DNA from: Pontibacter arcticus
Lineage (GTDB): Bacteria > Bacteroidota > Bacteroidia > Cytophagales > Hymenobacteraceae
DNA: 32,000 nucleotides
Direction: 5' to 3'
Assembly (NCBI RefSeq): GCF_003284895.1
Contig: NZ_QMDV01000002.1
Coordinates: forward strand, 805,466 to 837,465
The position numbers were made by a program, and so were the translations under genes. A model generated the notes under the pieces. The model was not told the DNA's origin, ran no database searches, and saw only the letters and a program-made list of their open reading frames with translations. Shown in pieces: positions 15,077 through 32,000 of the stretch (positions are counted from its first letter, which is position 1; every line of letters starts with the position of its first letter).

Positions 15077-16477
15077 CTAAGACCGAAGAACAGGAAATGG
15101 CGCAGTTGCTTTGGGGTTGGCTTTTAAAACGGGCCCTGCTGGCTTATCTTTTACAATATAGATCAGGAGCGTCAGGATCATAAGCACTTGTATGGTAAAC
15201 GGATTTAGAGAGGCCACCAACCAGGACTCTACCATATTAGAAGTAATAAGGGCAAAAGCTATGGGCAATGCCATATAAGAGTTTTTAGCTGCTTTGAAAA
15301 ATAAAAATCCCCAACCAATAATAAATAACAGTAATCCAATTAAACCAGTATCCAGCCATACTGTTAAAAAAGCATTATGCGCATTTCCTTCATGCCCGCG
15401 CAGACTCAGTTCCCAATAATTTTGCCTGTAGATCCATTCGGTATAGCTAAAGCCACGCCCCACCCAAAAGTTCTTTTGTATCTGCTCCCAGGCAAATTCA
15501 CGGGCTACTACCCTGCCACCACCTGCGTCCAACGTATCTACACGCAGATACTCCTCAAAACCTAAAGCCTGCGCAATGGCTACGATATCCAAATCAATAC
15601 TAACCAGCATGATGCCTAAAAATGCACTAAGTACCAAGCCAACAATCTGATTTCTTTTTGATAGATATTGCGTTATCAGAAAAATTAAGACAGATAAAGA
15701 TTGGCCGCGAGAACCGCTCCAAAGCAGCGAAGAAATAATAAGCGCAAAAATAACGATGTTCTCCCGTTTAGAAAACAGCGTCGGAAAATAGTGCCGGATA
15801 ACAAAGTATAACAAAAAGAATAAAAAGCAAAACATCCCCAAACCATTCGGGTTACCTAATGCGCCAGAAGAACGGCCGCCTTCGTTGTACATCACAAGCA
15901 TCGGGTTAGCCAGGTACATCAGATAACCGGCTATGAGCACAGCTACGCCCAGATAAATAATAGCTTTTAAAAAATAGGTATGGTAAGTTATATAAAGACT
16001 ATAGAACAGAATAGGTATGATAATAAAGAGCAGTGAATAGGAAAGTGTTTTTTGAAAAGCTGTAAAGGGTTCAGGGCTAAAGACAATGCAGAAGAATGCA
16101 AATAAACTAAACGCTAGCAAAGGCTGCACAAGTGACTTTGTATTATCCACCCACAGTGTACTTCTTCTATTAAAAAGCAAAGGCACCAAAAGCAGAAGCA
16201 TCATGACCGTCTTCAGATTTTGTGAAAAAGACAATGCATATATCCGGCTGTCTGAAAGGATAAGCGTAAAAAAGAAAACAATAAACAAGTATAAGTGCCG
16301 ACCTTTATTCTGCAAATACAGGGCGAATAAAGCTAATAAAGGAATTGCGACAACACCCAGGGCCATGCCTGTAACCAGCCAGCCAACAAGAAGCAAAAAC
16401 AGTTGTTTATAACTGGCTGCACTATAACCAGCTTCCGCTCGTGCCGATTCTATGTTATGTTCTTGATTTATTAACAA
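15077..16477 (-). CDS. O-antigen ligase / Wzy-type polymerase family membrane protein
   Basis: 466 aa, hydrophobic along almost its whole length with many predicted TM segments, and a Wzy_C-like region (LLWSGSRGQSLSVLIFLI). The ORF-track start is TTG and overlaps the upstream gene by 23 nt, so the true start is uncertain. Confidence 0.7.
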   Translation of the reverse strand: MLINQEHNIESARAEAGYSAASYKQLFLLLVGWLVTGMALGVVAIPLLALFALYLQNKGRHLYLFIVFFFTLILSDSRIYALSFSQNLKTVMMLLLLVPLLFNRRSTLWVDNTKSLVQPLLAFSLFAFFCIVFSPEPFTAFQKTLSYSLLFIIIPILFYSLYITYHTYFLKAIIYLGVAVLIAGYLMYLANPMLVMYNEGGRSSGALGNPNGLGMFCFLFFLLYFVIRHYFPTLFSKRENIVIFALIISSLLWSGSRGQSLSVLIFLITQYLSKRNQIVGLVLSAFLGIMLVSIDLDIVAIAQALGFEEYLRVDTLDAGGGRVVAREFAWEQIQKNFWVGRGFSYTEWIYRQNYWELSLRGHEGNAHNAFLTVWLDTGLIGLLLFIIGWGFLFFKAAKNSYMALPIAFALITSNMVESWLVASLNPFTIQVLMILTLLIYIVKDKPAGPVLKANPKATAPFPVLRS

Positions 16478-17603
16478 TGGATTTAATTGTTTCTATTGTC
16501 GTGCTTATAACCGAATCCCAGGTATAAGAATTCTTAACTAACTGTAAAGCTGCCTCTTGCTTCTGTGCTAGTTCTTCCCCATCTATACTGATAGCTTTAA
16601 CTATCGCTTGCTGGAGTGCGCTTTTGTCGGCTGCCGGAATGAGCCAGCCTGTCTCAACAGATACAAGCGCGCTAACAGCGCCCACATCCGTAGCAATTAC
16701 TGCCAGACCGGAAGCCATCGCCTCTAATATCACCGTGGGCATTCCTTCTGAGTAGCTTGGGCATACCAACACATCACTTGTCTTTAGGATTGCTTTGATT
16801 TCCTGTTCATCTCTAATCAGGCCATGGTAATCAACCTCGTCGTACTTCAACTGCTTTTCAGCAGGTATAGGGCCAATAAAGCTAACCTTAAAATTATACT
16901 TTCCGGAAAGGTGCTTTATAACTTCCTGTAGTTCCTCTATGCCTTTGCGTCTTTCATAGCGCCCGATAAATACAAATTTCCTGATTTTATTTGCCTTTAC
17001 CAACTGGCTTTGCTCTAACCAATGTGGCTCAATACCGATTGGGATTTCCAGAATTTGCTTTGTTGTAATACGCCTTTGAATGGGTGTTAATTTGCCTCCA
17101 AGTGAAAATACATAATCAGTATTATGTAGTATATACTTTACAGGCGGACCAAACAAAAGATGCTGAAGCTTAACATTGAAGTTTGGCGCCTGCTGAAACA
17201 TTTCAACACCATGAAAATTGACGCCTATTGGTGGTAAAGCTTTGCCTTTCTTCTTTTCAATTATTGTTTTCCAGCCGGTAAAACCCTGTGCATACACAAA
17301 GTTTACGGGTTCATTTTCTCTGAACAGTTGGTATACTTTTGCGGAATATAAATAAGATTCAACTACATAGTGCCCAGGCAGCTTTCTTGTAGACGGAAAT
17401 AATACATAATAAGGTGTTATATAAGAAAGCTCTTCTTCCGTAAAGTCTAATAACCGCGGTGTATCGGCATCTTTGCCTCCAGTGTGGTATAAATCTACAT
17501 ATACACCATTTCGCGCTAAATATTTAGCTAAATAGTAAGAGTGCTTTTGCATCCCGCCCAGCACATAAGGGTATATTCCGTCTGTTAGTAAGGCTATCCG
17601 CAT
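16455..17603 (-). CDS. Glycosyltransferase family 4 (GT-B), here called GT4b
   Basis: 382 aa with the E-x7-E motif (SEGMPTVILEAMASGLAVI). Its first 19 codons plus 16 nt upstream are duplicated at 19030-19102. Confidence 0.85.
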   Translation of the reverse strand: MRIALLTDGIYPYVLGGMQKHSYYLAKYLARNGVYVDLYHTGGKDADTPRLLDFTEEELSYITPYYVLFPSTRKLPGHYVVESYLYSAKVYQLFRENEPVNFVYAQGFTGWKTIIEKKKGKALPPIGVNFHGVEMFQQAPNFNVKLQHLLFGPPVKYILHNTDYVFSLGGKLTPIQRRITTKQILEIPIGIEPHWLEQSQLVKANKIRKFVFIGRYERRKGIEELQEVIKHLSGKYNFKVSFIGPIPAEKQLKYDEVDYHGLIRDEQEIKAILKTSDVLVCPSYSEGMPTVILEAMASGLAVIATDVGAVSALVSVETGWLIPAADKSALQQAIVKAISIDGEELAQKQEAALQLVKNSYTWDSVISTTIETIKSIVNKSRT

Positions 17604-17619
17604 GTAATAGAGCTAATCA
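17547..17619. repeat. 73-bp duplicated junction, functional copy (GT4b start region plus the GT2b stop codon)
   Basis: 67 of 73 positions are identical to 19030-19102 at a constant offset of 1483 bp with no indels. Confidence 0.9.
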
Positions 17620-18540
17620 ATGTTTAAATTTATAATATAGTGCCCAGAAATTTACTGGATTTAATACCTGAATTGCTATCTTTTTGAATAAAGAAAAATC
17701 TCCCTTCCAGATATTGTATCTTCCTTCGCTATGATACATTTTTTTGGTTTCTATAAATCCTGCATTTAAATATAACTCCTCTAATAAATAGAAAAACCGT
17801 GTCGTTAGTAATTTTTCATATTGCTTAAAGTTATTCTGCTCGAGCAAATGCTGCTTAATTTTACCCAAAAAAATAATAAGATTGGATTGTCTATCCTTTC
17901 TCATTGTTGTATTGGATATTGATTGGTCATGAACATTTTTTTCGAATAAGGGCTCGTTTAATTGAGCATGTTTGTATCCTTTCACTAATAACCTAAATAT
18001 TAGGTCTTTCTCCTGATTAGAATTAAGCAAAATATTAAACCCTCCTACATTCTCTAAAGCCTCTTTTTTAAAAAGAGCAGAACTGGTAATACCAATTGAA
18101 CCAGTTATTAATCCTTGCCAAGTATCTTTAAAATCTCTTTTACTATATCTTTTTTCACCATTTATGATTGCAAAGTTTTCAGCTGTGATAAAATCAATCT
18201 CATGATTTTGCTGAAAGAAGTTTACTTGTTTTTCAAGTTTAGAATTTATCAAGAAATCATCTGAATCCAAAAATTGAACATAATCGCCCTTGGCAATACT
18301 GAGTCCAGAATTTCGTGCATAAGGAGCTCCCTGCCTATTTTCAGTTAAAATTTTAATATCCCAATTATGCTGAACTTTTAAACTTTTGATTATATCCACT
18401 GAATTATCCTTTGAATTGTTATCTACACATATAACTTCAAAGTTATTGTAAGTCTGCTTAAAAACAGACTTTAGCATTTGCTCTAGGAACTGAGCGGAAT
18501 TGTATACAGGAATTATTACTGAAACTAGGGGAAACGACAT
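17617..18540 (-). CDS. Glycosyltransferase family 2, low-GC, here called GT2b
   Basis: It contains VSVIIPVYNSAQFLEQMLKSVFKQTYNNFEVICVDNNSKDNS and LDSDD, and is collinear with the GT2 at 20264-21193. The ATG at 18540 is preferred; the ORF track extends to a TTG at 18561. Confidence 0.85.
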   Translation of the reverse strand: MSFPLVSVIIPVYNSAQFLEQMLKSVFKQTYNNFEVICVDNNSKDNSVDIIKSLKVQHNWDIKILTENRQGAPYARNSGLSIAKGDYVQFLDSDDFLINSKLEKQVNFFQQNHEIDFITAENFAIINGEKRYSKRDFKDTWQGLITGSIGITSSALFKKEALENVGGFNILLNSNQEKDLIFRLLVKGYKHAQLNEPLFEKNVHDQSISNTTMRKDRQSNLIIFLGKIKQHLLEQNNFKQYEKLLTTRFFYLLEELYLNAGFIETKKMYHSEGRYNIWKGDFSLFKKIAIQVLNPVNFWALYYKFKH

Positions 18541-18895
18541 TTCTAATATTTTAAATTTCAATTTAAAAAATTTAAAAGTTACTAATTAAAAGTAAGCTTA
18601 TAAAACGTTAATATTCTTTGCTGTCAAATTCTGATGCTTTCCTAAATTAAAGTTCTCAATTCATTTTCTTTATTTATATAGCATATCATTTAGATCTAAT
18701 GCTTTAACATAAAGAATTATAAGCTACATCAATAATATGATTATATTAAACATTAGAGAAAAGTCGTCTATTCAGTAGAAATAATCACTTTTAAAGAAGC
18801 AATGGTTTAATTGTCTAATTTAACGGGTGATGAGTTACAGTCTAATATAGGCTGTTCCTTTAAAAGTATAAATTATTCTGCAATTACTAAGTGTA

Positions 18896-19015
18896 ATTTG
18901 ATATCATTTGGTATTACATATTGTATATATATTTGCTCCTAATTATTCTATTAAACGATAAAATTAATTCGACTTAATGACATAAGAATAAGAAATTTAA
19001 GATTTGATATCATTT
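18896..19015. repeat. Two 14-nt direct repeats (atttgatatcattt, core palindrome tgatatca) 106 bp apart in the AT-rich spacer
   Basis: 18896-18909 and 19002-19015 are identical. Confidence 0.6.
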
Positions 19016-19026
19016 AGGATAGGTGG

Positions 19027-19086
19027 CTATTGCATCCCACCCAGCACATAAGGATAAATCCCATCTGTTAGTAAGGCTATCCGCAA
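19027..19086 (-). pseudogene. Ghost 5' end of a GT4b-like gene (start ATG changed to TTG, 19 codons, then TAG)
   Basis: The minus strand reads ttg cgg ata gcc tta cta aca gat ggg att tat cct tat gtg ctg ggt ggg atg caa tag. After the first codon this encodes RIALLTDGIYPYVLGGMQ, identical to residues 2-19 of the gene at 16455-17603. Homology stops at the TAG. Confidence 0.8.
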
Positions 19087-19102
19087 GTAATAGAGCTAAT
19101 CA
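19030..19102. repeat. 73-bp duplicated junction, relic copy (overlaps the 3' end of the GT4 gene 19077-20267)
   Basis: See 17547-17619. The six differences are at 19039, 19054, 19057, 19060, 19063 and 19086. Confidence 0.9.
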
Positions 19103-20267
19103 CCTTTTCCGCATTCTTAACCCAGGTATAGTTCGTTAACACCAGGCGCTTAAAGGCATGGGCACAAGATTCCCTGAGCGATTTATTTTCAATGAATTGA
19201 TTTAAGGCAGTTTTTAAGCTATCTACATCAGGCTGAATCAATAATCCTGTGATTTGATCATGCATTACATCTTTTACCGGAATATTATCTGGAGCAATTA
19301 CAGCTTTGCCCATCGCTGCATATTCAAATATTTTAACAGGAGAGCCATACCAGTTAGAAGTTGGCATTACACAGATATCCATACAGGCAATATAATTAAA
19401 TACATCCTGATGCTTAATGTTGCCGGTAAAGGTAATAACATCCTGCAGCTGCTCCTGTTGAACCAGATTTTTTAAGAGCGGTAAAGTTTCTCCATCCCCA
19501 ACAATAAGTAAATGCAGCGATGAATCTGAAGCTGATATTGTCTTAAATGCTTTTATCAGTAAATCTATTCCATGCCAGGGAAAAATGGAACCTACAAAGC
19601 CTATAACAGTTTTATGCGTAATTTTTAACGCTTCTTTTATATCTGAGGCCCTGTTAAGAGAGTAATTAATATGGGCAGGATTGATGGCATTCGGAGTTAA
19701 AATAAATTTATCAGCCTCAATGTGGTAAGTTGTTGACAAGTGCTTTTGAAGTGCACTCGATACAACAGCAATTTTAGTACTTCCTTTTAAAAGCTTTTTT
19801 TCTATCTCTACCCCTTTGCCTGCATAAAAGCTGTTCCCCTGCATCTGTACTCTTTCTTCAGCATATGGTGCATTAACTTCCAATACGTGCTGTATACGGT
19901 GCTTAACAGCGGCTTCAACGCCAGATGTCTGCAAATAAGCTGCCCTTTCATAAATTAAGTCAGGCTGAAATTGCTGTATTTCTTCTTCCAGAATTTCAGC
20001 AGCATATTTATCAAATTTAAGTAATTGATGATCTTTGGCTGTTTCCCATATAAAAGAAGGCACCATCGAAGCAGCCATTTGCTTTAAAGGGCTTCTGCCT
20101 TTTATACTCAGATCGCCTTCGTTTATAGTGGTACCCCCCATTATAACCGGTTTTACGTCATGGCCTAGTTGCCCAAAAGCATGTATCATTTCACGTATGT
20201 GCGTGCCATAACCTGCAGGACTAGCTAAATTGAGATGTGGATGTGAGGAGTAATAAAGGATTTTCAT
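19077..20267 (-). CDS. Glycosyltransferase family 4 (GT-B), here called GT4a
   Basis: 396 aa with a GT-B C-terminal motif region (GSPVKIFEYAAMGKAVIAPDN). Its ATG overlaps the upstream stop codon (ATGA). Confidence 0.8.
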   Translation of the reverse strand: MKILYYSSHPHLNLASPAGYGTHIREMIHAFGQLGHDVKPVIMGGTTINEGDLSIKGRSPLKQMAASMVPSFIWETAKDHQLLKFDKYAAEILEEEIQQFQPDLIYERAAYLQTSGVEAAVKHRIQHVLEVNAPYAEERVQMQGNSFYAGKGVEIEKKLLKGSTKIAVVSSALQKHLSTTYHIEADKFILTPNAINPAHINYSLNRASDIKEALKITHKTVIGFVGSIFPWHGIDLLIKAFKTISASDSSLHLLIVGDGETLPLLKNLVQQEQLQDVITFTGNIKHQDVFNYIACMDICVMPTSNWYGSPVKIFEYAAMGKAVIAPDNIPVKDVMHDQITGLLIQPDVDSLKTALNQFIENKSLRESCAHAFKRLVLTNYTWVKNAEKVISSITCG

Positions 20268-22034: not shown

Positions 22035-22952
22035 TTATTTTAATTTAAATGAATGGTAAACTCCTCGGTAAAAATGAAGATTAAGGTAGGATCCGGCTAA
22101 TTTCTTTTTTGAAAAAGTAAATAAATTTAATAGTAGAAACAGCACCTCTTTCAGAACAACTCTGGTAAACATAACTGGCGTAAAAAAACTTTTACTCTTT
22201 AAACCAGCACTAATTCCTGCCTTAAATTTTCTGTTTATTAACCAGTTAAATGTAGCTCTTTCTTTGGGCACGTAATGCCATACTTTTGCATCTTCTACAT
22301 ACCAAGGATTTATGCCCAGATTATCTAGCCTTACCATCATATCATGCTCCTGCCCGGTTGCACCGGTTGCAGAGTTAGGCCCAAAATTGATGTCAAAACC
22401 ACCTGCTTTTTTTAGTTGTGAGCTATGAGCTGCCCAGTTGAATCCTATTAAATCGATGGGTGACAGTTTTTTGTTTTTTGCTTTTTCCCAGCCACTTGCT
22501 GAAACAGGCATAAAGTCTATATAGTAAGGCTCAGGGCGTAGCTCGTAGTCTACTTGATAAGGCCCTCCGTAAAAATAATCAAGCCCATACTCCTCAAAAG
22601 CAGAAGCGTAAGCTGTAATTACTTCAGGAGATACCCTGATATCGTCATCAAAGAAAATAATAAAAATATCATTCTCTATTGTATCCAGTGCTTTGTTAAG
22701 GGCATCGCTTTTATTAGCCTGTGCACTGTATTGATATTCGCAACCAATGTTTTTATACTTACTGCATACAATTTCAGCATCACCTTTCTCCCCATTTTCA
22801 ATAACAATGGTTTTTAGATAGTTTGACGGAAAAACGCATTTGCTTAAACTTTCTAAAGTTCTGTTAAGCAGAGAACCCCTGCCATAAGTTGGTATGACAA
22901 TGATAATACTATCTTTTTTATTTAAAGTCTCGGACCTCATACTTCCAGTCAC
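22035..22952 (-). CDS. Glycosyltransferase family 2
   Basis: 305 aa containing IIVIPTYGRGSLLNRTLESL and FFDDDI. The ORF-track start is GTG at 22952, with an alternative ATG at 22940. Confidence 0.8.
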   Translation of the reverse strand: MTGSMRSETLNKKDSIIIVIPTYGRGSLLNRTLESLSKCVFPSNYLKTIVIENGEKGDAEIVCSKYKNIGCEYQYSAQANKSDALNKALDTIENDIFIIFFDDDIRVSPEVITAYASAFEEYGLDYFYGGPYQVDYELRPEPYYIDFMPVSASGWEKAKNKKLSPIDLIGFNWAAHSSQLKKAGGFDINFGPNSATGATGQEHDMMVRLDNLGINPWYVEDAKVWHYVPKERATFNWLINRKFKAGISAGLKSKSFFTPVMFTRVVLKEVLFLLLNLFTFSKKKLAGSYLNLHFYRGVYHSFKLK

Positions 22953-22992
22953 AATCTAAAATGGTAAACGAATTGCCAGAATCCAATTTCTA

Positions 22993-24162
22993 TTAAATTA
23001 TGTTCTTCGTCTTTGCTTCGTGCTTATCTACAATGGCTTGGATATCTTTTATAAATTTATCATTATTTGAGATATCATTCAGCTTATTATATAAAGCCCT
23101 GTTATGCATACAATCCGCTAAACTTAGTTGAAGCTTATTATTTTTTAAATCATCCTCTAACTGGCCTTCTATTGAAAAAATAATAAACCCCAAGTTTTTT
23201 AACCATTTTAAAGATGGGTTCTTGACAGATAGATATACCTTAACTCCATTTATCAATGAAATTAAGACATTCCCTAAGGCCATCTGCCTATAAGAATTGA
23301 AAACAGCAGTTGAACAATTACCAATTAAATTGACATACTCATTGAAAGGGATGAAATCTTCAAGAAGTTCATAAGGGTTAGGTAAACTCATTAAGTTACT
23401 TTTAAGCTCATTCCCATAAGTTTCATTCCCCGGTGTATAACTATAGGGTATTATCAGAGGAATTTTATTATTACTGGCTAATAATATATCTAATATATCA
23501 AGATGATTATTACTAGGTGAACGCGAATTACCTAATATGATTCCTGATTTCTTCGGTTTTGAAAGATCAACTTTCGGAACAGGTATAGTTAAAGGAAGAG
23601 CTAAGAACTCTGGCAAATAATGAACCTTCTTCTTTAACATTTTATATTCATTATAATCAAATGCTAAAAAGAAATTAACTCTTTTAATGGCTCTTTCACT
23701 AATCTTATCTTCAGTATTTCTAATTCTGCCCGTAAGAACATCCTTGATAGTAGCTTTTGTTTCAATATAATTAAGCTCAAGTTTTTTAAAGAATACATTT
23801 TTTATACCTAATGCTTTTTTTGTTAAGTCTGAGTATATATCATATCTATACTTTATCATATGATAGACTTCAGCACCAAAAAAATGCCATATAACTTTGA
23901 TATTAGGATCTAAACTGTTAATTAACTTCGCTTTAGTTAAGTCAAGGTGATAGATTATAACGCAATCAAATACCAAGGCCTTTTTCGCTAAAGCAGCTAG
24001 GCTTTCCGAAGTGGGTTTAATCCACTCAATGCTATTTATATATTTACCATTATAGGTAAATTCTTCTTTAAGAGAAACGATATGATTTTCGCAGGTGGTA
24101 TACCTTAATAAGTGACCATCAATAAATTTATCATCACTAACGACATGAAGTATTTTGAGCAT
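22993..24162 (-). CDS. WecF-like glycosyltransferase (GT56, TDP-Fuc4NAc:lipid II 4-alpha-N-acetylfucosaminyltransferase family)
   Basis: 389 aa with blocks collinear with my recollection of E. coli WecF. ILHVVSDDKF matches LIHVLGSDIP, VIWHFFGAEVY matches FFWHIWGADLY, IILGNSRSPSNNHLDIL matches ILVGNSGDRSNEHIAAL, and IPYSYTPGNETY matches VPMGYPPNNEAY. The comparison is from memory, not an alignment. Confidence 0.65.
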   Translation of the reverse strand: MLKILHVVSDDKFIDGHLLRYTTCENHIVSLKEEFTYNGKYINSIEWIKPTSESLAALAKKALVFDCVIIYHLDLTKAKLINSLDPNIKVIWHFFGAEVYHMIKYRYDIYSDLTKKALGIKNVFFKKLELNYIETKATIKDVLTGRIRNTEDKISERAIKRVNFFLAFDYNEYKMLKKKVHYLPEFLALPLTIPVPKVDLSKPKKSGIILGNSRSPSNNHLDILDILLASNNKIPLIIPYSYTPGNETYGNELKSNLMSLPNPYELLEDFIPFNEYVNLIGNCSTAVFNSYRQMALGNVLISLINGVKVYLSVKNPSLKWLKNLGFIIFSIEGQLEDDLKNNKLQLSLADCMHNRALYNKLNDISNNDKFIKDIQAIVDKHEAKTKNII

Positions 24163-24215
24163 TATTATACTGAAGATTAAATTAATGTTGAAGCTAATTC
24201 TACTTTCAAAGCGGC

Positions 24216-25223
24216 TTATGCTCTTGTAATAGTTAAATCTTTCAAACCTTTCACGCCTATTTCCGGTTTGAAGTCATTTTCATTAATTTGTTTATCATTT
24301 AGCCAGGCTATAATTGCTCCTGGTAAATTTACGCCTGCTAAATGTGAAAATGGATACCCTCCACCAAATCGGGCATTCATTTCCAAAACATAAGGAACAT
24401 TATCTACTAAAAACACATCGGTATCCAGGTTAGCGATATGCTGAAGCGCTTTACTCATTCTTTCACCCAGCTCTAACATAGCAGGTGAATGAACAGTTTC
24501 AGCACTATCTGTTTCTCCGGATCGCATGGCTATCTTCTTTTTCACTATAGTAGCCTGGTACTTTCCTTTAAGGTCATTAATAATATCCAGGCCATATTCC
24601 TGGCCTTTTAGTTTCTCCTGAATAAGGATACAGTTATCGTTATCCTGTTCTGATTCAAAGGATAAATAACTTCTAAAAATTTCCCGTTTTACTTTTGTGT
24701 ATAAAATGGCAAGCTCTTCCTCATTATCAGCTTCCTGTACAGCAATAGAACCCATACCCCACCTTGGCTTGATGATAAGAGGGTAATTTATTTTCTTCTG
24801 AGCTATAGCTTCTACCGCATCAGCTACACTCAAAAATGTAGCTGGTGTATTAAACTTGTTTTTTACTAAGAATTGATATGTTTTCCATTTATCATTACAG
24901 ATATCAATTACACGCTCATCCGAAACAATCACCTGCGTACCAATTACTTCAAAATCCTGCTTATGATTTGCTAAAATAGGTAAGTCAATATCAAAAAGTG
25001 GTATTATAGCCTTAATAGCGTGTTGCTGGCAGTATTCCAGCAGAAAACTTATATAATTGGTATCATAAATCAGGGGCGTAACGACAGCCTTGTCCGCTAC
25101 TCTCAAAGCCGGAGCATCCGGAGAACTATTAGCTGCATGCACTTCACCAATACTTTTAAGTTCTTCTTTAAAATATTCGATTAAATAGCTTCTTCTACCA
25201 GAAGAAGTGAATAATATATTCAT
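24216..25223 (-). CDS. ATP-grasp domain protein (carboxylate-amine ligase type)
   Basis: 335 aa with N-terminal ILFTSSGRRSYLI, a central YPLIIKPRWGMGS, and C-terminal LEMNARFGGGYP, typical of the ATP-grasp Mg/ATP site. Confidence 0.8.
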   Translation of the reverse strand: MNILFTSSGRRSYLIEYFKEELKSIGEVHAANSSPDAPALRVADKAVVTPLIYDTNYISFLLEYCQQHAIKAIIPLFDIDLPILANHKQDFEVIGTQVIVSDERVIDICNDKWKTYQFLVKNKFNTPATFLSVADAVEAIAQKKINYPLIIKPRWGMGSIAVQEADNEEELAILYTKVKREIFRSYLSFESEQDNDNCILIQEKLKGQEYGLDIINDLKGKYQATIVKKKIAMRSGETDSAETVHSPAMLELGERMSKALQHIANLDTDVFLVDNVPYVLEMNARFGGGYPFSHLAGVNLPGAIIAWLNDKQINENDFKPEIGVKGLKDLTITRA

Positions 25224-25289
25224 GATTAGCTAATTAGTTGATGTTATTAAATAACTTAAAGTGCTTTAAAAAATCGCTGAAGGTTTATC

Positions 25290-25745
25290 TTAAAATATAA
25301 GTGTCATGCGCGCAGTCATATCATTCTGCCTGTCGTTTACCAACTCCGTAACACGAAAACCCAATGAGTTATATAAATGTATTCCTGCAGCATTCCCAGC
25401 CCAGGTTTCTACTTTTATAGAATTCATATTAGCTTCTTGGCACTGCGCAATACAATTCGATAATAGTTTGCGGCCTAGTCCTTTACCTTTATGTAAATCA
25501 TCTATAGCGAAGTATGAGATATAAGCTTGTTTGCTGTTAAAATCATTACAATAAAAAGCGATCATACCAGCAATAACATTTTCATTTACTGCAAAAGCCA
25601 AAGATGCTTGCTCCAGGAGCTTTTCGGAATACTCTTTTAAATTAACCTTTGAAGCGATTGCAGGTACAAAGAACTTTTCTTGATGAAGTATAAATACTTC
25701 AATTTGTTCTGCTGTCAGATAACTTTTATCAGAGCTTATTTTCAT
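25290..25745 (-). CDS. GNAT family N-acetyltransferase
   Basis: 151 aa with acetyl-CoA binding motif A (HKGKGLGRKLL) and motif B (LYNSLGF). Confidence 0.85.
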   Translation of the reverse strand: MKISSDKSYLTAEQIEVFILHQEKFFVPAIASKVNLKEYSEKLLEQASLAFAVNENVIAGMIAFYCNDFNSKQAYISYFAIDDLHKGKGLGRKLLSNCIAQCQEANMNSIKVETWAGNAAGIHLYNSLGFRVTELVNDRQNDMTARMTLIF

Positions 25746-25816
25746 GTTAGCATTAAGAAACTTATACTTAATATATCAAACACCTATTAGAAATTTTAAA
25801 ACAGCACTTTAAACAG

Positions 25817-26899
25817 CTAATTATTTTGAACTCGTAGTAAGTGTCTGCAAATCAAATCTACCTCTTCCACTGAAAGGTCAAAGTATAAAGGCAAACATAG
25901 CACTCGTTTTGCGATGTCGTCTGTAACTGCTAAAGATTGTGGCTCCAAATAAGGTAAAGTATTTGCCAGGGAAGGATAAAAATAGCGTCTGGTAAATATT
26001 TCCTTTGTTTTCAGGCTTTCGATACACTTTAACATCAACGCTTCGTTTTCAAAAACAAGTGGGTAATAAGCGTAGTTGTTTTCAGAAGCTTTATGCCATT
26101 GCGGCCGGCGTGCCTGAAAGTTTCTTAAATTATGATCGAACCGCTCTGTCAGGCTTTTTCTTTTTAAGTGAATCTCCTCTATATAAGCCAGATTAGTTAA
26201 GCCCATCGCAGCATGGAACTCAGAGTTTTTACCATTGATGCCTAATTCTGCAAAAGACTCCGGCCCATTAAAACCGAAATTACGGATATAAGCCAGTTTC
26301 TTTAAGAGTTCAGGCTCTTTTGTTATGATCAAGCCCCCTTCCCCTGAATGGTATAATTTAGTAGCATGCAGGCTGCAGGTTGTTATGTCACCATATTCAA
26401 AAATTGATTTTCCATTCACCTGTACTCCAAATGCATGAGCGCCATCATAGATTACTTTCAGGTTATACTTATTAGCAATCCCATCAATCGCTTCCACATC
26501 ACAGGGGTTACCATACACATGCGTAGCTAATATGGCTGTGGTTTTATCAGTAATAGCAGCCTCAATTTTGGCAGCATCAATATTCAGGGAGCCCGGGTCA
26601 ATATCTACAAACACAGGCTGGCAGCCCTCCCATACAATAGTGCTGGTAGTAGCCACAAAGGAGAAGGGTGTTGTAATAATTTCTCCTTTTAAATTCAATG
26701 CTTTTATAGCCATCTGTAAAGCTACCGTACCATTTGTTACAAATAATAAATGCTTTACACTTAAAAACGCTTTCAGCTGTAACTCCAGTTCATTCGCTAA
26801 CGGCCCCATATTGGTTAACCACTGGCGTTTCCAGATACCGTCTAAATACTTGGTGTATTCTTCTTGAGGAGGTAAAAAAGGTTTGGTTAAAGGGATCAT
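25817..26899 (-). CDS. DegT/DnrJ/EryC1/StrS family PLP-dependent sugar aminotransferase
   Basis: The N-terminus MIPLTKPF, NGTVALQMA, and the PLP-lysine context CSLHATK resemble 4-aminotransferases of 4-keto-6-deoxy sugars. The ATG at 26899 is preferred; the ORF track extends to a TTG at 26911. Confidence 0.85.
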   Translation of the reverse strand: MIPLTKPFLPPQEEYTKYLDGIWKRQWLTNMGPLANELELQLKAFLSVKHLLFVTNGTVALQMAIKALNLKGEIITTPFSFVATTSTIVWEGCQPVFVDIDPGSLNIDAAKIEAAITDKTTAILATHVYGNPCDVEAIDGIANKYNLKVIYDGAHAFGVQVNGKSIFEYGDITTCSLHATKLYHSGEGGLIITKEPELLKKLAYIRNFGFNGPESFAELGINGKNSEFHAAMGLTNLAYIEEIHLKRKSLTERFDHNLRNFQARRPQWHKASENNYAYYPLVFENEALMLKCIESLKTKEIFTRRYFYPSLANTLPYLEPQSLAVTDDIAKRVLCLPLYFDLSVEEVDLICRHLLRVQNN

Positions 26900-26963: not shown

Positions 26964-28745
26964 TCAGGAAGATAATGCTTTTTCCGAAAGGCTATCATAG
27001 CTATGCACCTGCTTTACTAAGCCATTCTCCAGTTCGATAATAGCGTTACAATATTTAAGCGTGGTATAACGGTGCGCTATAATCAGCATGGTAATATTTT
27101 CTTCTGAAAGGGCTTTGATGGACTCGGTGATCTCGATTTCGGTTTGTGTATCAAGTGCACTGGTAGCTTCATCAAAAACAAGAATCTTAGCACCCGAATA
27201 AATAGCCCGCGCAATGCCGATACGTTGCTTTTGGCCGCCTGATAAAAGGGAGCCCCTGTCGCCAATGCGGGTATGAATGCCATTCGGTAGTTGAGAAGCG
27301 AATGTAAGCATACTGGCAGATTTCAGAGCATGTTCCACTTTACTAAGATCAATTTCTGAAGCAGGAATACCGAAGGCAACATTTTCAGCTATAGTTGCAT
27401 CCAACACATAAACATCCTGCTGCACATAGCCAATTAATTTCCGGAAGCTTTGTAAATTATCAGGGGTAACAACAGTATCATCAACAGATATATAACCTTC
27501 TTTCGGATACAGAAATCCTAGTAAAATATTAATTAAAGTACTTTTACCCGAACCTGAACGCCCTATAATACCAATAGAGGCCCCGATAGGAATAGATAAA
27601 TTGATATGCTGTAAAACAGGCTTTTTGTTATCGTAAGCAAATGAAAGATCGCTTATCTTAATCTCATTCTGAAATGGAATGATCTGTTCAGAAACGGGCA
27701 CGGCGGCCTCTTTTACTTCTTCCTGGTTAATTTGAGTAATAACCTCCAGCGTATACTGATAGCCTTTTATCCCTATCAGTGCAATCATCAGGCGGTTAAC
27801 CGATGGCAGTACCCTGTAAGCTGCTAAGGCAAAAATGGTCAGCAAGCCGGTCAGGTGGCTTTGATTTTCAAGAAATAGGGTTCCGTATAAAGCTACCAAT
27901 ACAATAGCCGCTATCATAGCAGATTCTATCACTTTAGTTGGTGCCTGCTGTATGACCTTATCCTTCGCTTTTAACAAGGTGGCACGGTGCAAATACGTAT
28001 CATGTATCTTTTTAAAATACAGTTCCGTGTTAGTCATCTGCACATCTACATAACCATAAATAGACTGGAACATATTTTTGCCAATCTTTGGGTTAAGCTC
28101 ATTTAATTCGTTTTGTATGCTCGATGCTTTATTCTTGACAGAACGATACAAAATACCAAAAATGGGTACCACAAACACCAGCAGCAGTACAATTACCAAG
28201 GGATCGTACAGTAAAATCCCTATTACAATTAATATCAGGATCAGTAATTCATTGATAAAATTAAGTAAATTACTTACGAGGCTATTAGAGAACTCTGAAG
28301 GTATACTATTGATGTTGCGGGTAATTTTATTCGGATTGTTCGATTTAAAGAATAAAAATCCCTTCCGATAATAGTAACTGAATAAATGAGAGGAGAAATA
28401 TTTATACAGACTTAAGGTATAGGAAGCTTGCTTCCTTATAATTAATAAGCTGGCAATATTTTTTAGTATGATAAAAACCAATACAAATACAGCCAGACTA
28501 ACTATAAATGCTTTAATAGATGTAAATCCCAATATGTTATAAGCCATTGAGAGGTATTTACTTTCCGTAACAGCATTTTCCTGAAGCATGATCGTAATAA
28601 TCGGAAAAATGGCTGCCAAACCAAGAAGCTCCAGTATAGAGTTTAGAAACAGCAGCACCATCACCCACAAAGATTGTTTTCTGAATGAAGGTGGCAGGAT
28701 GTTATAAATTCTCTGAATAGTAGAGAAAATAATATTTCTGGACAT
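26964..28745 (-). CDS. Fused permease/ATPase ABC exporter (MsbA/PglK-like architecture)
   Basis: 593 aa with an N-terminal ~6-TM domain followed by an NBD carrying Walker A GRSGSGKST, the signature LSGGQKQR and Walker B ILVFDEATSALD. Confidence 0.9.
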   Translation of the reverse strand: MSRNIIFSTIQRIYNILPPSFRKQSLWVMVLLFLNSILELLGLAAIFPIITIMLQENAVTESKYLSMAYNILGFTSIKAFIVSLAVFVLVFIILKNIASLLIIRKQASYTLSLYKYFSSHLFSYYYRKGFLFFKSNNPNKITRNINSIPSEFSNSLVSNLLNFINELLILILIVIGILLYDPLVIVLLLVFVVPIFGILYRSVKNKASSIQNELNELNPKIGKNMFQSIYGYVDVQMTNTELYFKKIHDTYLHRATLLKAKDKVIQQAPTKVIESAMIAAIVLVALYGTLFLENQSHLTGLLTIFALAAYRVLPSVNRLMIALIGIKGYQYTLEVITQINQEEVKEAAVPVSEQIIPFQNEIKISDLSFAYDNKKPVLQHINLSIPIGASIGIIGRSGSGKSTLINILLGFLYPKEGYISVDDTVVTPDNLQSFRKLIGYVQQDVYVLDATIAENVAFGIPASEIDLSKVEHALKSASMLTFASQLPNGIHTRIGDRGSLLSGGQKQRIGIARAIYSGAKILVFDEATSALDTQTEIEITESIKALSEENITMLIIAHRYTTLKYCNAIIELENGLVKQVHSYDSLSEKALSS

Positions 28746-28819: not shown

Positions 28820-29932
28820 TTACTCGTGATAATTGAGCACCCGGTGCCCGCCTTCTTTTAAATAAGTATCACGCTTAAACAATTCCAGGTCGGCCTGCAT
28901 CATATCTTTTACCAAAGCCGGAAGATCATACTTTGGCTGCCAGCCTAATTTGGTATTGGATTTAGTAGCATCACCGATAAGCAGCTCTACCTCCGTAGGT
29001 CTGAAATAATTAGGATCTACACTCACTACTTCTCTGCCAATCTGGAGCTGGTATTCAGGATTGGTGCAGGCTGCGATATAGCCTTTCTCTTCTACGCCTT
29101 CTCCTTTAAACTCCAGTTCAACGCCTACTTCGGCAAAGGCCATCTTAATAAAATCACGCACGGTTGTGGTAACCCCAGTAGCAATTACAAAATCTTCAGG
29201 CTTATCCTGCTGCAATATAAGCCACATGGCTTCTACATAATCCTTGGCATGGCCCCAGTCACGTTTCGCATCCAGGTTACCCAGGTATAGTTTATCCTGC
29301 AGGTTAAGTGCTATACGGGCTGCCGCGCGGGTAATTTTACGGGTAACAAAAGTCTCCCCTCTCAATGGTGATTCATGGTTAAACAAAATACCATTGCAGG
29401 CAAACATATTATAAGCTTCGCGGTAGTTAACCGTGATCCAGTAAGCATACAATTTGGCTACAGCGTAAGGTGAACGCGGGTAGAAAGGCGTCGTTTCAGA
29501 TTGTGGAACAGCCTGCACCAAACCGTATAACTCAGAAGTAGATGCCTGGTAAATACGGGTCTTCTCGGTCATGCCAAGTAAGCGAACAGCCTCTAGGATA
29601 CGCAAGGTACCGATACCGTCTGCATTAGCCGTATATTCAGGCATATCGAAGCTCACTTTCACGTGGCTCATAGCAGCGAGGTTATAGATTTCATCGGGCT
29701 GCGTTTCCTGGATGATGCGGATCAGGTTGGTCGAATCTGTAAGGTCGCCATAATGCAGTTTGAAATTTATATTTTTCTCATGCGGGTCCTGGTACAGGTG
29801 ATCTATACGATCTGTGTTCAGCATAGAACTACGACGCTTCAAGCCATGTACTTTATATCCTTTGCTTAAAAGCAGTTCTGCCAGGTAGGCTCCGTCTTGT
29901 CCGGTTACACCAGTTATGAGCGCTGTTTTCAT
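28820..29932 (-). CDS. gmd: GDP-mannose 4,6-dehydratase
   Basis: 370 aa with [19 protein letters not shown], the STSELYG catalytic region and YAVAKLY (YxxxK). Confidence 0.95.
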
Positions 29933-30128: not shown

Positions 30129-31094
30129 TTAACAGCCCTTTCCAGTTTGGGATAGAGCTTGAATAGTGTGCTTCTCCTTAAAGTCGTTATAAGCCATGGC
30201 TATGCCCTCTCTAAGCTCTACTTTATGCTTCCATCCTAAGCTATGGAGTTTTGATACGTCCATTAATTTACGGGGTGTTCCGTCAGGTTTAGAGGTATCG
30301 AACACCAGCTCCCCTTCATAATCCGTTACTTCTTTTACCAACAGCGCAAGTTCCTTAATCGTTACATCTTCGCCTGTACCAATATTAACCAGTTCTCGTC
30401 CCGAATAGGCTTGCATCAGAAATACGCAGGCTTCTGCCAGGTCATCGGCAAACAAAAATTCGCGCATCGGGCTACCTGTTCCCCACACAACAACTTCCGG
30501 AGCATTGTTTAGCTTCGCTTCATGAAACTTACGGATCAGTGCCGGCAGCACATGTGAGTTGTTCAGGTCGTAATTATCATTATAGCCATACAGGTTAGTA
30601 GGCATCACACTGATAAAATCGCAACCATACTGATCGCGGTAGGCTTCGCAAAGCTTTATCCCGGCAATCTTTGCAATTGCATACGGCTCGTTTGTAGGCT
30701 CCAAAAGACCTGTTAGCAAATAATCTTCTTTTAAAGGCTGAGGTGCCATTTTCGGATAAATACACGACGAACCCAGAAACTGCAGTTTTGTAACGCCTGC
30801 CATATAAGCAGCATGGATCACATTTGCCTCCATCATCAGGTTGTCGTAGAGAAATTCTGCCCGATAGCTGTTATTTGCCTGTATCCCCCCTACTTTGGCA
30901 GCAGCCAGGAAAACGTATGCCGGCTTTTCTGTAGCGAAAAAATCTAAAACAGCCTGTTGGTTCCTTAAGTCGAGTTCAGAAGAAGTCCGTGTTACTAAAT
31001 TGGTAAAACCGGCTGCTTGCAGGTTTCGGCAAATTGCTGAACCTACCATGCCTCTATGACCAGCTACATATATTTTAGAATTTTTCTGCATCAT
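30129..31094 (-). CDS. fcl: GDP-L-fucose synthase (GDP-4-keto-6-deoxymannose 3,5-epimerase/4-reductase)
   Basis: 321 aa with [15 protein letters not shown] (Rossmann), GSSCIYP and YAIAKIAG (YxxxK). Confidence 0.95.
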
Positions 31095-31566: not shown

Positions 31567-32000
31567 TTAAAATTTGAAATGCCACCACGGAGATTTTTCA
31601 TTATCCTCCGCATAATAGCCATACCCGTAACCATATCCATAACCATAGCCGTAGCCATAATTTAACTTCTGATAATCCACGTCATTCAGGAGTATGGCTG
31701 TATTACTTATTTTTCCTTCTTCCACTTGCTTCTGGATGTTATTCAGGAAAAACTTTAATGTATAATTCTGGCGAACCAGGTAAATATTGGCGTCAGATTG
31801 TTGCATTAACTCCAATCCATCCGATAAAATTCCGATAGGAGGAGTATCTATGATTACATAGTCATATCTGCTTTTCAAATCCCCAATCAAATCTGTCATT
31901 CGTTTATGCAATAATAACTCAGACGGGTTTGGCGGAATATCACCGGAAGGAAGGATATGAAAATTATCCTGAATGGTAGGATAAATAACATCTTCGAGTG
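31567..32000 (-). CDS. Polysaccharide biosynthesis tyrosine autokinase (Wzc/BY-kinase), C-terminal part; 5' end outside the window
   Basis: The frame stays open to the window edge (LEDVIYPTIQDNFHILPSGDIPPNPSELL...). It has Walker B-like YDYVIIDTPP and a C-terminal tyrosine cluster (YG)7YY. The ORF-track start at 31911 is an internal TTG. Confidence 0.9.
   Translation of the reverse strand, partial: LEDVIYPTIQDNFHILPSGDIPPNPSELLLHKRMTDLIGDLKSRYDYVIIDTPPIGILSDGLELMQQSDANIYLVRQNYTLKFFLNNIQKQVEEGKISNTAILLNDVDYQKLNYGYGYGYGYGYGYGYYAEDNEKSPWWHFKF

Follow-up and report, generated by a model that had tools for sequence, protein, structure and literature searches.

A putative amino-sugar acylation and transfer module with an ATP-grasp ligase in a polysaccharide locus of a Pontibacter-like bacterium

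Five consecutive minus-strand genes at positions 22035-26899 of the window (the whole stretch of DNA analyzed, 32,000 nt) encode a DegT aminotransferase, a GNAT acetyltransferase, an ATP-grasp ligase, a GT56-like GT-B transferase, and a GT2 glycosyltransferase. The question raised by this arrangement is what an amide-forming ligase contributes to a set of amino-sugar genes, and on which nucleotide-activated sugar it acts. A first-pass annotation had proposed a 4-amino-4,6-dideoxyhexose, possibly acylated on its amine by the ATP-grasp enzyme and transferred by a GT56 enzyme, and had left the nucleotide carrier open. When sequence comparison, structural models, and gene neighborhoods are combined, we favor, with moderate confidence, the reading that the genes at 22035-26899 tailor a sugar and transfer it within a Wzc/Wzy-type surface-polysaccharide locus of a Pontibacter-like soil bacterium; this grading is a joint one for the whole pathway proposed below.

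Results

All five genes named in the first pass are found at the stated coordinates on the minus strand, with intergenic gaps of 23-71 bp on the single strand. The low GC content ascribed to the module also holds, at 0.30-0.36 over 22.5-26 kb versus 0.42-0.49 in the flanks at 1-16 kb and 29-31 kb (1-kb windows). The upstream boundary of the polysaccharide locus is a Wzc-type BY-kinase (31567..32000, minus strand), whose C-terminus with a (GY)n tail is encoded before the gene runs off the end of the window. Its translation is open to position 31998 with no stop, carries the Walker-B-like DYVIIDTPP, and finishes with GYGYGYGYGYGYGYY; in the related locus L085, a 787-aa counterpart is found upstream of fcl. 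Neighboring GT2 and GT4 enzymes and a Wzy_C protein are also encoded in the locus.

The ATP-grasp amide ligase (24216..25223, minus strand) belongs to the PRK12767.1-3 subfamily on the basis of PylC-like_N (102 bits) and ATP-grasp_3 (65 bits) matches in Pfam, and scores 379 bits against NCBIfam NF009404 (cut-off 316). Its catalytic motifs are intact, with the E-M-N-x-R Mg/ATP motif (E281, N283, and R285) and K152 invariant or almost so among homologues. The AlphaFold2 model (pLDDT 91.8) has as its top structural match 2PN1 (TM 0.80/0.87), a structure without an assigned function. Across 80 genomes/loci with this family, a DegT gene lies within 10 kb of the ligase gene in 67, within five genes in 57, within three genes in 46, and immediately beside it in 26; Wzx is found next to DegT or the ligase in 42 and a GT56 gene in 13. 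The synteny with DegT, RmlA, RmlB, and Wzx spans several phyla, in a repeated cassette of GT, Wzx, PLP enzyme, ATP-grasp (with or without GNAT), DegT, RmlA, and RmlB. One form of it is carried between insertion sequences on E. coli plasmids in the order RmlB-RfbA-Wzx-DegT-GNAT-PLP enzyme-ATP-grasp-GT, with a ligase 51% identical to that of the window, and L007 has the order ABC-DegT-GNAT-x-ATP-grasp-GT2.

A precedent for the pairing of such a ligase with an aminotransferase is provided by Pat/Pyl. Pyl of Bacillus cereus is reported to be an ATP-grasp enzyme that ligates 2-oxoglutarate to a UDP-4-amino sugar (Hwang et al. 2014, cited in PMC8987622; PMC11626204). Over 318 aa, the window ligase shares 30% identity (E = 6e-48) with the B. 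cereus-group protein P0243, whose Pfam domain arrangement is the same and whose NCBIfam assignment is the sister sub-model PRK12767.1-4. P0243 is presumptively Pyl on the basis of its organism group and its gene context (CapD-like dehydratase-DegT-small PGT-ATP-grasp). The window ligase is predicted to form an amide between a carboxylic acid and the C4 amino group of a nucleotide-activated amino sugar.

The small GNAT N-acetyltransferase (25290-25745, minus strand, 151 aa; Pfam Acetyltransf_1, 54.6 bits) is predicted to cap an amine in this pathway, carried by the appended acid or by the sugar itself. It gives no BLAST match to E. coli WecD under E = 1e-5. WecD acetylates a sugar amine, and if the GNAT were to do the same, the ligase would be left without an amine acceptor on that sugar. 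It could be speculated that, parallel to enterobacterial common antigen synthesis, the GNAT forms dTDP-Qui4NAc or dTDP-Fuc4NAc by acetylating the C4 amine and the ligase makes another amide in the same polysaccharide, for example by coupling an amino acid or an amine to the carboxylate of a uronic acid. The polysaccharide probably does contain a uronic acid, since the locus has genes for a UDP-sugar dehydrogenase (8080-9405) and for an AsnB-type amidotransferase (11982-13862). ATP-grasp enzymes that amidate glucuronate also have a precedent in the capsule of Campylobacter jejuni (Cj1438). Weak similarity of the GNAT to the WecD and PseH models of NCBIfam points the same way, as do the 13 of 80 loci that lack a DegT within 10 kb, of which some are on short contigs and one (L071) has gmd-fcl and no DegT. 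We nevertheless consider this division of labor unlikely. The GNAT is far under the WecD cut-offs (17 vs 195 for TIGR02382; 38 vs 219 for PRK10975), and a UDP-sugar dehydrogenase occurs within five genes of the ligase in only 4 of the 80 loci, compared with the 57 for DegT; the minimal mobile cassette on the E. coli plasmids has no dehydrogenase. Pyl, as the nearest relative of presumptive function, acts on a sugar amine in the accounts cited above. In addition, a GNAT domain is fused to the ligase C-terminus in 6 of 80 loci (fused or within three genes in 21), and many fusions of 485-497 aa occur among the ligase homologues, which suggests consecutive steps on one substrate. Acylation of the sugar amine by the ligase is the reading that we retain.

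The aminotransferase (25817..26899, minus strand) is a DegT/DesI-like PLP enzyme (Pfam PF01041, 297 bits) with the PLP-lysine motif CSLHATK seen in the alignment. The listed TTG start at 26911 probably lies four codons too far upstream, as the ATG at 26899 gives 360 aa, equal to the length of all close orthologues, among them those of L086 (79% identity), L087 (73%), and L085 (63%). The enzyme is DesI-like and not a WecE orthologue: the top NCBIfam model is DesI (TIGR04427, 258 bits, under the cut-off of 650), and among PDB entries DesI (2PO3, 187 bits) scores best, versus 94 bits for WecE (4PIW). A neighbor-joining tree, built without bootstrap and with partly fragmentary reference sequences, places the window protein inside a clade of ATP-grasp-linked DegT proteins, with DesI as the sister group; WecE and Per, between which a decision had been sought, fall outside. 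Within that clade it groups with the DegT of L033, whose neighbors are a true RmlA (TIGR01207, 492 bits vs cut-off 361) and a true RmlB (TIGR01181, 446 vs 365). The window enzyme is predicted to be a dTDP-4-keto-6-deoxy-D-glucose 4-aminotransferase.

The carrier of the sugar is probably dTDP rather than GDP, because the orthologue in L087 sits in an operon with the order RmlB-RmlA-Wzx-DegT-...-GT56, in which the products of the two upstream genes share 55% and 64% identity with E. coli RffG and RffH. Together with the tree, this context moves a question that had been left undecided clearly toward dTDP, even though rmlA and rmlB are absent from the 32,000-nt window. The genes gmd (28820-29932, minus strand; TIGR01472, 597 bits vs cut-off 415) and fcl (30129-31094, minus strand; NF047922, 517 bits vs 500), which had been placed next to the module, are indeed nearby and on the same strand but are separated from it by one gene. 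In E. coli O157, a DegT-family enzyme acts on GDP-4-keto-6-deoxymannose, and it is conceivable that the window DegT similarly uses this Gmd product, with the ligase and GNAT tailoring GDP-perosamine. The position of gmd one gene upstream of DegT, repeated in L085 (fcl-gmd-flippase-DegT) and in L089 and L090 (gmd-Wzx-DegT), would fit such a route, as would the Caulobacter perosamine synthase (Per, 3BN1) as the third-best PDB match of DegT at 147 bits. We hold it to be improbable, given that gmd is paired with fcl and so completes a GDP-L-fucose pathway, that the same slot is held by RmlB-RmlA in L087, that the tree puts DesI, and not Per, next to the clade, and that the nucleotidyltransferase found next to this DegT clade is RmlA (22 of 80 loci). 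Furthermore, the donor-side, C-terminal half of the transferase is WecF-like, and the donor of WecF is a dTDP sugar. A separate GDP-L-fucose branch is probably fed by gmd-fcl instead, as the pair keeps its place in related Pontibacter-type loci whose tailoring genes differ; L090 also has a gene of the GT10 family, which comprises fucosyltransferases.

The GT56-like GT-B glycosyltransferase (22993..24162, minus strand, 389 aa) matches PF07429 at 62.3 bits, above the gathering score of 25, over residues 167-350 only. The collinearity with WecF that had been claimed for it stands for the C-terminal half and not, at the sequence level, for the rest: the C-terminal 156 aa share 24% identity with E. 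coli WecF, hhalign aligns the two proteins over columns 204-343 with a probability of 98.7%, and the equivalog models of WecF reach 41-77 bits where their cut-offs are 457-754. The AlphaFold2 model (pLDDT 90.9) shows two Rossmann-like domains, and Foldseek returns GT-B enzymes (TM 0.55-0.63). The protein is predicted to move the tailored 4-amino sugar onto a lipid-linked repeat unit. Directly downstream, after a gap of 40 bp, lies the GT2 gene (22035..22952, minus strand; PF00535, 53 bits), whose product is 96% identical to its counterpart in the sister locus L082. Because relatives of it are absent from the 80 ATP-grasp loci, it is probably a locus-specific backbone glycosyltransferase outside the conserved cassette. 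The gene between DegT and gmd (26964..28745, minus strand) encodes a PglK/MsbA-type ABC exporter in which TMD and NBD are fused (593 aa; ABC_tran, 106 bits), with scores of 285 bits for PglK (NF050066) and 259 bits for MsbA (TIGR02203), each under its cut-off. A homologue (53% identity) comes after GT56 in L085. The exporter is a candidate flippase, in the slot of Wzx in related cassettes.

Discussion

When these assignments are placed in order, a pathway can be proposed. RmlA and RmlB, presumably encoded outside the window, would supply dTDP-4-keto-6-deoxy-D-glucose, which the DesI-like DegT, an enzyme class assigned by homology, would transaminate at C4 to dTDP-4-amino-4,6-dideoxyhexose of gluco or galacto configuration. 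The ligase would then turn a carboxylic acid, for which amino acids (for example Gly, Ala, Asp, and Glu) and 2-oxo acids are candidates, into an acyl phosphate and from there into an amide on the C4 amine, as suggested by ATP-grasp chemistry, by synteny with DegT, RmlA, and RmlB, and by homology to Pyl. In the least secure step, the GNAT may acetylate the free amine of an appended amino acid to give an N-acetyl-aminoacyl group. The finished sugar could be passed from dTDP to an undecaprenyl-linked repeat unit by the GT56-like enzyme, and this unit would be extended by the GT2/GT4 neighbors, flipped by the candidate PglK-like ABC exporter, and polymerized by the Wzy_C protein.

As a whole, DegT, ATP-grasp acylation, GNAT, and GT56 transfer on a dTDP sugar form the pathway to which our moderate confidence applies. 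The core of the original proposal is strengthened by comparative genomics, through the DegT/RmlA/RmlB/Wzx synteny and the paralogy (30% identity) with the presumptive Pyl, and the label wecE/wecD/wecF is reduced to a functional analogy, with all three genes under the NCBIfam equivalog cut-offs. That the ligase and GNAT are passengers making a free dipeptide or N-acetyl-amino-acid conjugate, beside a glycan with a plain amino or acetamido sugar, seems very improbable: the best-scoring characterized structural neighbors of the ligase include the L-amino acid ligase 3VOT and biotin carboxylases, but the tight nucleotide-sugar gene synteny kept across several phyla, the operon-like array, and the homology to presumptive Pyl speak against it.

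The PRK12767.1-3 family is very widespread, the window ligase having over 6,500 homologues at roughly 60% identity, and we found no study of it in the literature. In the Bacteroidota loci examined, the GT56 homologue is always downstream of DegT, and in seven of them the two bracket variable tailoring genes: WbqC and GNAT; WbqC and LbH with or without HpcH/MaoC; WbqC, a methyltransferase, and an AsnB-like protein; sulfotransferases; or GNAT and ATP-grasp. Related Bacteroidota retain DegT and GT56 and exchange the tailoring genes in between.

Organization of the module and the surrounding locus

The five consecutive genes named in the first-pass annotation, encoding a DegT-family aminotransferase, a GNAT, an ATP-grasp ligase, a GT56-like protein and a GT2, are all recovered by Pfam on the minus strand, where they form an operon-like series with gaps of 23 to 71 bp. 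The DegT gene (25817-26899) matches PF01041 with 297 bits over residues 17-358, the GNAT gene (25290-25745) matches PF00583 with 54.6 bits, and the ATP-grasp gene (24216-25223) encodes PylC-like_N and ATP-grasp_3 domains. The gene for the 389-amino-acid GT56-like protein (22993-24162) and the GT2 gene (22035-22952, assigned by profile match) complete the series. The low GC content described for the module is also borne out, at 0.30 to 0.36 over 22.5-26 kb versus 0.42 to 0.49 in the housekeeping flanks (SMC, AccA). The placement of gmd beside the DegT gene stands in part, as the two are near each other but a PglK/MsbA-like ABC exporter gene (26964-28745, minus strand) intervenes. On the high-coordinate side of this exporter lie gmd and fcl, both on the minus strand and both above their NCBIfam equivalog cut-offs. 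At 90% identity or more, Gmd shares a cluster with its counterpart from Pontibacter pamirensis, which marks the source as Pontibacter-like and a member of the Bacteroidota.

The module is part of a long polysaccharide locus. A Wzc-type tyrosine kinase, present with its C terminus and (GY)n tail (from 31567 to the end of the window, minus strand), marks the upstream, high-coordinate edge; a listed 114-amino-acid open reading frame (ORF) is in fact this C terminus, the frame being open to 31998 and ending in the tail GYGYGYGYGYGYGYY. On the low-coordinate side of the module the locus adds three further GT2 genes and four of the GT4 family, together with genes for a Wzy_C protein, an AsnB-type amidotransferase, a UDP-sugar dehydrogenase and a hexapeptide acyltransferase. 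The presence of this dehydrogenase (8080-9405, minus strand) and of the AsnB-type glutamine amidotransferase (11982-13862, minus strand) in one locus suggests that a uronic acid is turned into a uronamide.

The ABC exporter sits where most related cassettes have a Wzx flippase, and three related Pontibacter-type loci (L085, L089 and L090) have Wzx plus a homologue of the ABC protein. It may be an ABC-type flippase for lipid-linked oligosaccharides within a Wzy-dependent locus. Promoter-like sites (45, versus 52.4 ± 7.1 in shuffles, in a scan not designed for Bacteroidota promoters) and terminator-like sites (16 versus 11.0 ± 4.0) show no clear excess, and the scan places no terminator-like site between module genes.

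An ATP-grasp family with a recurring gene neighborhood

The ATP-grasp protein belongs to NCBIfam PRK12767, with 379 bits on the sub-model NF009404 (PRK12767.1-3) against a cut-off of 316. By homology its catalytic motifs are intact: the E-M-N-x-R motif is retained, with no variation at K152, N283 or R285 and at least 90% conservation of E281. The predicted structure (pLDDT 91.8) finds its best fold match in 2PN1 (TM 0.80/0.87), a structural-genomics entry to which no function is assigned, and biotin carboxylases and an L-amino acid ligase rank next; beyond 2PN1 the fold search returned only such generic carboxylases and ligases, with no match pointing to a substrate.

The family is very large and its sequence strongly conserved. 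At E <= 1e-10 the ATP-grasp has more than 6,500 matches among database proteins, the top 120 of them about 60% identical to the query across distant phyla, and one scan found at least 589 relatives encoded in species-representative genomes. Relatives occur in Bacillota, Bacteroidota, Pseudomonadota, Fusobacteriota and other taxa, and many homologues are fusions of 485-497 amino acids that include a GNAT domain.

When the ORFs of the 80 best homologue loci are clustered, an aminotransferase of the window's DegT clade is found within 10 kb of the ATP-grasp in 67, within three genes in 46 and directly adjacent in 26. Within the same 10 kb, a Wzx flippase is encoded in 42 of the 80 loci, an SDR dehydratase (RmlB in the locus tested) in 27, RmlA in 22 and a GT56 protein in 13. 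A GNAT is fused to the ATP-grasp or lies within three genes of it in 21 loci, and a formyltransferase is present in 2. These genes recur as [GT2 or GT56]-Wzx-(PLP enzyme)-ATP-grasp(-GNAT)-DegT-RmlA-RmlB. The PLP enzyme, beside the ATP-grasp in 50 of the 80 loci, is of one of two kinds, belonging either to the ACC-deaminase/D-cysteine-desulfhydrase family (30 loci) or to the DAP-decarboxylase/N-citrylornithine-decarboxylase (FslC-like) family (20 loci). These two seem to be alternatives to each other; the window has neither. Their presence hints that, in other cassettes, they may act by deamination or decarboxylation on the acid itself or on an amino acid linked via its side-chain carboxylate.

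From this context a route can be proposed. By homology, the DegT protein is a predicted sugar C4 aminotransferase. Its substrate would be dTDP-4-keto-6-deoxyglucose, and the ATP-grasp enzyme would acylate the resulting C4 amine via an acyl-phosphate intermediate. If that acyl group is an amino acid, the GNAT might then acetylate its amine, and transfer of the finished sugar might fall to the GT56-like enzyme. The capping step is put forward because the fusions between GNAT and ATP-grasp suggest it, and it fits the N-acetylglycine carried by an amino-dideoxyhexose in the E. coli O121 O-antigen (PMC7685785). N-(N-acetyl-aminoacyl) O-antigens of this sort need one enzyme that adds the amino acid and one that acetylates, a requirement that ATP-grasp and GNAT together would fit. 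A 2019 review of E. coli O-antigens lists N-acetylglycine, alanine and N-acetylserine substituents and assigns no ligase to them (PMC7685785).

As the main alternative, the GNAT could acetylate the sugar itself, as WecD does, with the ATP-grasp amidating another target such as a uronic acid. The GNAT is a generic PF00583 member that lies far from WecD/RffC, reaching 17 bits on TIGR02382 (cut-off 195) and 38 on PRK10975 (cut-off 219), with no BLASTP match to E. coli RffC at E <= 1e-5. Against a uronic acid target, dehydrogenases are scarce around the ATP-grasp family (a UDP-sugar dehydrogenase within 10 kb in 9 of the 80 loci and within five genes in 4), and a related cassette on an E. coli plasmid has none. 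We consider this alternative unlikely, and acylation of the C4 amine by the ATP-grasp remains our preferred reading.

The E. coli cassette lies on plasmid pLAU-OXA3 (NZ_CP045280.1, 14436-32792) and on three similar plasmids of about 37 kb, from human isolates, with IS5/ISAs1/IS1 borders. It runs epimerase-RmlB-RfbA-Wzx-DegT-GNAT-ACC-deaminase-family PLP enzyme-ATP-grasp-glycosyltransferase, with 51% identity between this ATP-grasp and that of the window. It looks like a mobile, self-contained module for sugar decoration.

The aminotransferase and its nucleotide carrier

The first-pass annotation had left the carrier between dTDP and GDP and had proposed placing the aminotransferase relative to WecE and Per. 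The protein is a member of the DegT/DnrJ/EryC1 family by PF01041 and by its PLP-lysine motif, in which 'SLHATK' aligns with 'SFHATK' of DesI, a dTDP-sugar 4-aminotransferase. DesI is also its best NCBIfam model (TIGR04427), at 258 bits and far below the equivalog cut-off of 650. Among solved structures, DesI (2PO3, 187 bits) ranks ahead of Caulobacter perosamine synthase (3BN1, 147) and WecE (94). The WecE models are missed clearly (PRK11706, 188 bits versus 375; TIGR02379, 145 versus 435), and identity to WecE of E. coli K-12 is 29%. In a neighbor-joining tree of 78 sequences, built without bootstrap, with some references being fragments and Per represented by a single sequence, the window DegT clusters with those of two of the 80 ATP-grasp loci (L026 and L033) inside a large clade of ATP-grasp-associated DegTs; the sister of this clade is DesI, and both WecE and Per fall outside.

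Gene context is more telling for the carrier than these scores. The window DegT is 79% identical to the DegT of a Taibaiella locus (L086), 73% to that of an Ulvibacterium locus (L087) and 63% to that of a second Pontibacter locus (L085), each of which precedes a GT56 homologue. The Ulvibacterium operon reads RmlB-RmlA-Wzx-DegT-...-GT56, where the two leading genes share 55% and 64% identity with RffG and RffH of E. coli. The DegT of L033 is flanked by RmlA and RmlB, both above their equivalog cut-offs. On the basis of the DesI scores, the RmlA/RmlB context in L087 and L033 and the placement in the tree, we regard dTDP as very probably the carrier of the DegT substrate, with rmlA and rmlB, which the window lacks, presumably encoded elsewhere in the genome.

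The gmd and fcl genes are best read as a separate GDP-fucose branch. They occupy the same position in L085, L089 and L090 irrespective of the downstream tailoring genes, and L090 also encodes a member of GT10, a family of fucosyltransferases; the contig of a near-identical sister locus (L082) begins at fcl. A GDP-perosamine route, which the nearby gmd might bring to mind, is improbable, as Per falls outside the clade of the window DegT in this tree and scores below DesI, and as the 73%-identical orthologue of L087 belongs to an RmlB-RmlA operon. A nonulosonic acid (Pse/Leg) cluster, considered for the ATP-grasp in view of an SDR dehydratase and a DegT in its neighborhood, was also dropped, because the neighbors are true RmlA and RmlB and not PseB/LegB.

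The GT56-like transferase

Comparison of the 389-amino-acid protein with the GT56 profile, as proposed at first pass, gives 62.3 bits on PF07429 against a gathering score of 25, with residues 167-350 only matching positions 149-334 of the 358 in the model. About 60 homologues were found, mainly in Bacteroidota, and most carry PF07429 in their precomputed annotation. The described collinearity with WecF applies to the C-terminal half only. BLASTP aligns only the C-terminal 156 amino acids with E. coli WecF (24% identity), hhalign reports 98.7% probability over 139 columns only, and six WecF models give 41 to 77 bits versus cut-offs of 457 to 754, so that the protein falls short of WecF orthology.

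As a sequence search of solved structures returned no relative, the fold was tested with AlphaFold2 and Foldseek. The model (pLDDT 90.9, pTM 0.88) yields 315 matches in the PDB at E <= 0.001; the best 50 of these are all GT-B glycosyltransferases (BshA, HepE, OtsA and others; TM 0.55-0.63). By its modeled structure the protein is convincing as a GT-B glycosyltransferase with two Rossmann-like domains.

Comparison with the sister locus L082, which comes from a public sequencing run, adds a separate observation. The proteins encoded by fcl, gmd, the ABC exporter gene, DegT, GNAT, ATP-grasp, GT2a and GT2b are 96-99.7% identical between the two loci, but the GT56-like proteins are only 64% identical. 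Nucleotide identity, about 97% on either side, drops to 58-69% exactly across 23363-24262, a stretch that covers the first two thirds of the GT56-like gene, at its N-terminal end. The N-terminal domain of the transferase, presumed to be the acceptor side, has been swapped by recombination, and the WecF-like half, the presumed donor side, has been retained. Downstream of GT2c the gene content differs (window 16455-20267, L082 10901-16945): the window block holds GT4a and GT2d, whereas that of L082 holds genes for a UDP-GlcNAc 2-epimerase and GT4 enzymes, one gene lacking annotation and another that faintly matches a pyruvyl transferase. At GT4b (16624-17603), identity between the two returns to 98.7%. 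The polysaccharide locus is a mosaic of exchanged blocks. Between GT2d and GT4a, a gap of 515 bp (18562-19076) has no ORF of 80 amino acids or more, only two short ones of 38-43 amino acids, and the 1-kb windows around it reach the GC minimum of the window, about 0.27; it may be a junction left over from block exchange.

Variable genes between DegT and GT56

Each of the seven Bacteroidota loci read has a DegT gene upstream of its GT56 homologue. The DegT, of 357-360 amino acids, and the GT56 protein enclose a variable insert, which consists of GNAT and ATP-grasp in the window and L082, of WbqC and GNAT in the Taibaiella locus, of WbqC, a methyltransferase and an AsnB-like protein in L087, and of HpcH-MaoC-HpcH-WbqC-LbH acyltransferase in L085. 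L089 and L090 have WbqC-LbH, a different ATP-grasp and a pyruvyl transferase at this point. What had been described as an interruption of the module by an ATP-grasp gene is thus one option among several, and the variation shows the ATP-grasp to be one of the alternatives by which the same amino sugar would be decorated ahead of GT56 transfer. A clean replacement of WbqC by ATP-grasp, as in non-orthologous displacement, is weakened by the co-occurrence of WbqC and another type of ATP-grasp in L089 and L090, and a literature search on WbqC returned nothing informative.

In another of these Bacteroidota loci (L088, 5182-9149; genome GCA_006365075.1), sulfotransferase genes flank DegT on both sides and acyl-tailoring genes are absent, a hint that the amino sugar may carry sulfate, possibly on its nitrogen.

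Relation to known systems

A UDP-Yelosamine pathway using the aminotransferase Pat and the ATP-grasp Pyl was reportedly described by Hwang et al. (2014, J Biol Chem 289:35620). Bacillus cereus ATCC 14579 makes UDP-Yelosamine via Pat and Pyl, and Pyl is reported to join 2-oxoglutarate in amide linkage to the C4 amine of a UDP-4-amino-6-deoxy sugar (PMC8987622, PMC11626204). The arrangement seen in the window, earlier called not textbook, is indeed not a textbook one, but it has a published functional precedent in Pat and Pyl.

A B. cereus-group homologue, P0243, was reached by way of a Priestia plasmid homologue that was then used as query. Its context is CapD-like dehydratase-DegT-small phosphoglycosyl transferase-ATP-grasp-HAD, and we treat it as the presumptive Pyl because taxon and gene order agree with the description in PMC11626204. 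The window ATP-grasp is 30% identical to it over 318 residues (E = 6e-48); both consist of PylC-like_N and ATP-grasp_3 and fall into PRK12767, and each of the two polysaccharide loci pairs its ATP-grasp with an aminotransferase of the DegT family. However, P0243 scores best on the sister sub-model PRK12767.1-4 and the window protein on PRK12767.1-3. The partner of P0243 resembles LegC/PseC and comes after a CapD-type UDP-GlcNAc dehydratase, whereas that of the window is DesI-like with a dTDP context, and in place of the small phosphoglycosyl transferase and HAD hydrolase of B. cereus the window has a GNAT and a GT56-type enzyme. Given the 30% identity, the shared architecture and the differing partner aminotransferase, the window ATP-grasp is probably a paralogue of the presumptive Pyl, coupled to a dTDP-type rather than a UDP-type aminotransferase.

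The likeness to enterobacterial common antigen synthesis (WecE/RffA, WecD/RffC, WecF/RffT) lies in a shared logic, in which a 4-aminotransferase is followed by an N-acyl step and by GT56 transfer to a lipid-linked intermediate, with a dTDP-4-acylamino-4,6-dideoxyhexose as the donor there and a dedicated flippase nearby. The C-terminal, presumed donor-binding half of the window transferase is homologous to WecF. The label of a wecE/wecD/wecF-like module holds for this logic and fails for orthology, as the NCBIfam equivalog cut-offs for WecE, WecD and WecF are all missed widely, the comparisons with the E. coli proteins agree and none of the three genes is orthologous. The window also has the extra ATP-grasp step, and an ABC exporter takes the place of WzxE. 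The Taibaiella order DegT-WbqC-GNAT-GT56 parallels the DegT-GNAT-ATP-grasp-GT56 of the window.

For the sugar, the closest likeness is to DesI/VioA (dTDP-viosamine/Qui4N), with DesI as best model and best structure and with orthologues of the window DegT beside RmlA/RmlB; the window DegT nevertheless scores far below the DesI equivalog cut-off, and its product may have either the gluco or the galacto configuration.

Meaning of the proposed ligase family

In O-antigens, capsules and flagellar glycans, the N-acyl groups of amino-dideoxy sugars act as dominant epitopes, and to our knowledge the enzymes that attach amino-acid-type substituents are mostly unassigned. Our literature search recovered a single characterized ATP-grasp of the sugar-amine type, Pyl, which reportedly acts on a UDP sugar. 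The system discussed here appears to differ from Pat/Pyl in its dTDP-linked subfamily, its GNAT partner and its GT56-type delivery. We tentatively propose, with confidence just short of even, that the PRK12767.1-3 ATP-grasps form a large, apparently uncharacterized family of dTDP-4-amino-4,6-dideoxyhexose:acid ligases, which with optional GNAT, formyltransferase, ACC-deaminase-type or DAP-decarboxylase-type partners would give rise to N-aminoacyl or N-oxoacyl surface amino sugars. The pathway would be mobile as a self-contained cassette, including the IS-flanked E. coli plasmid copies, and its PLP variants would remodel the acid while it is on the nucleotide sugar.

To a specialist the chemistry would be mechanistically unsurprising, and the functional steps are all inferred. 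The scale and mobility of the family add weight, as does the outcome of the literature search, which found no published characterization and no paper describing the dTDP-linked ATP-grasp cassette, absence from that search not being the same as absence of a description. The cassette occurs in gut Lachnospiraceae, Bacillales, Bacteroidota and E. coli plasmids. Should these proteins prove to be dTDP-4-amino sugar ligases, one series of assays would annotate a widely spread cassette, and glyco-engineers would gain a modular route to sugar decoration.
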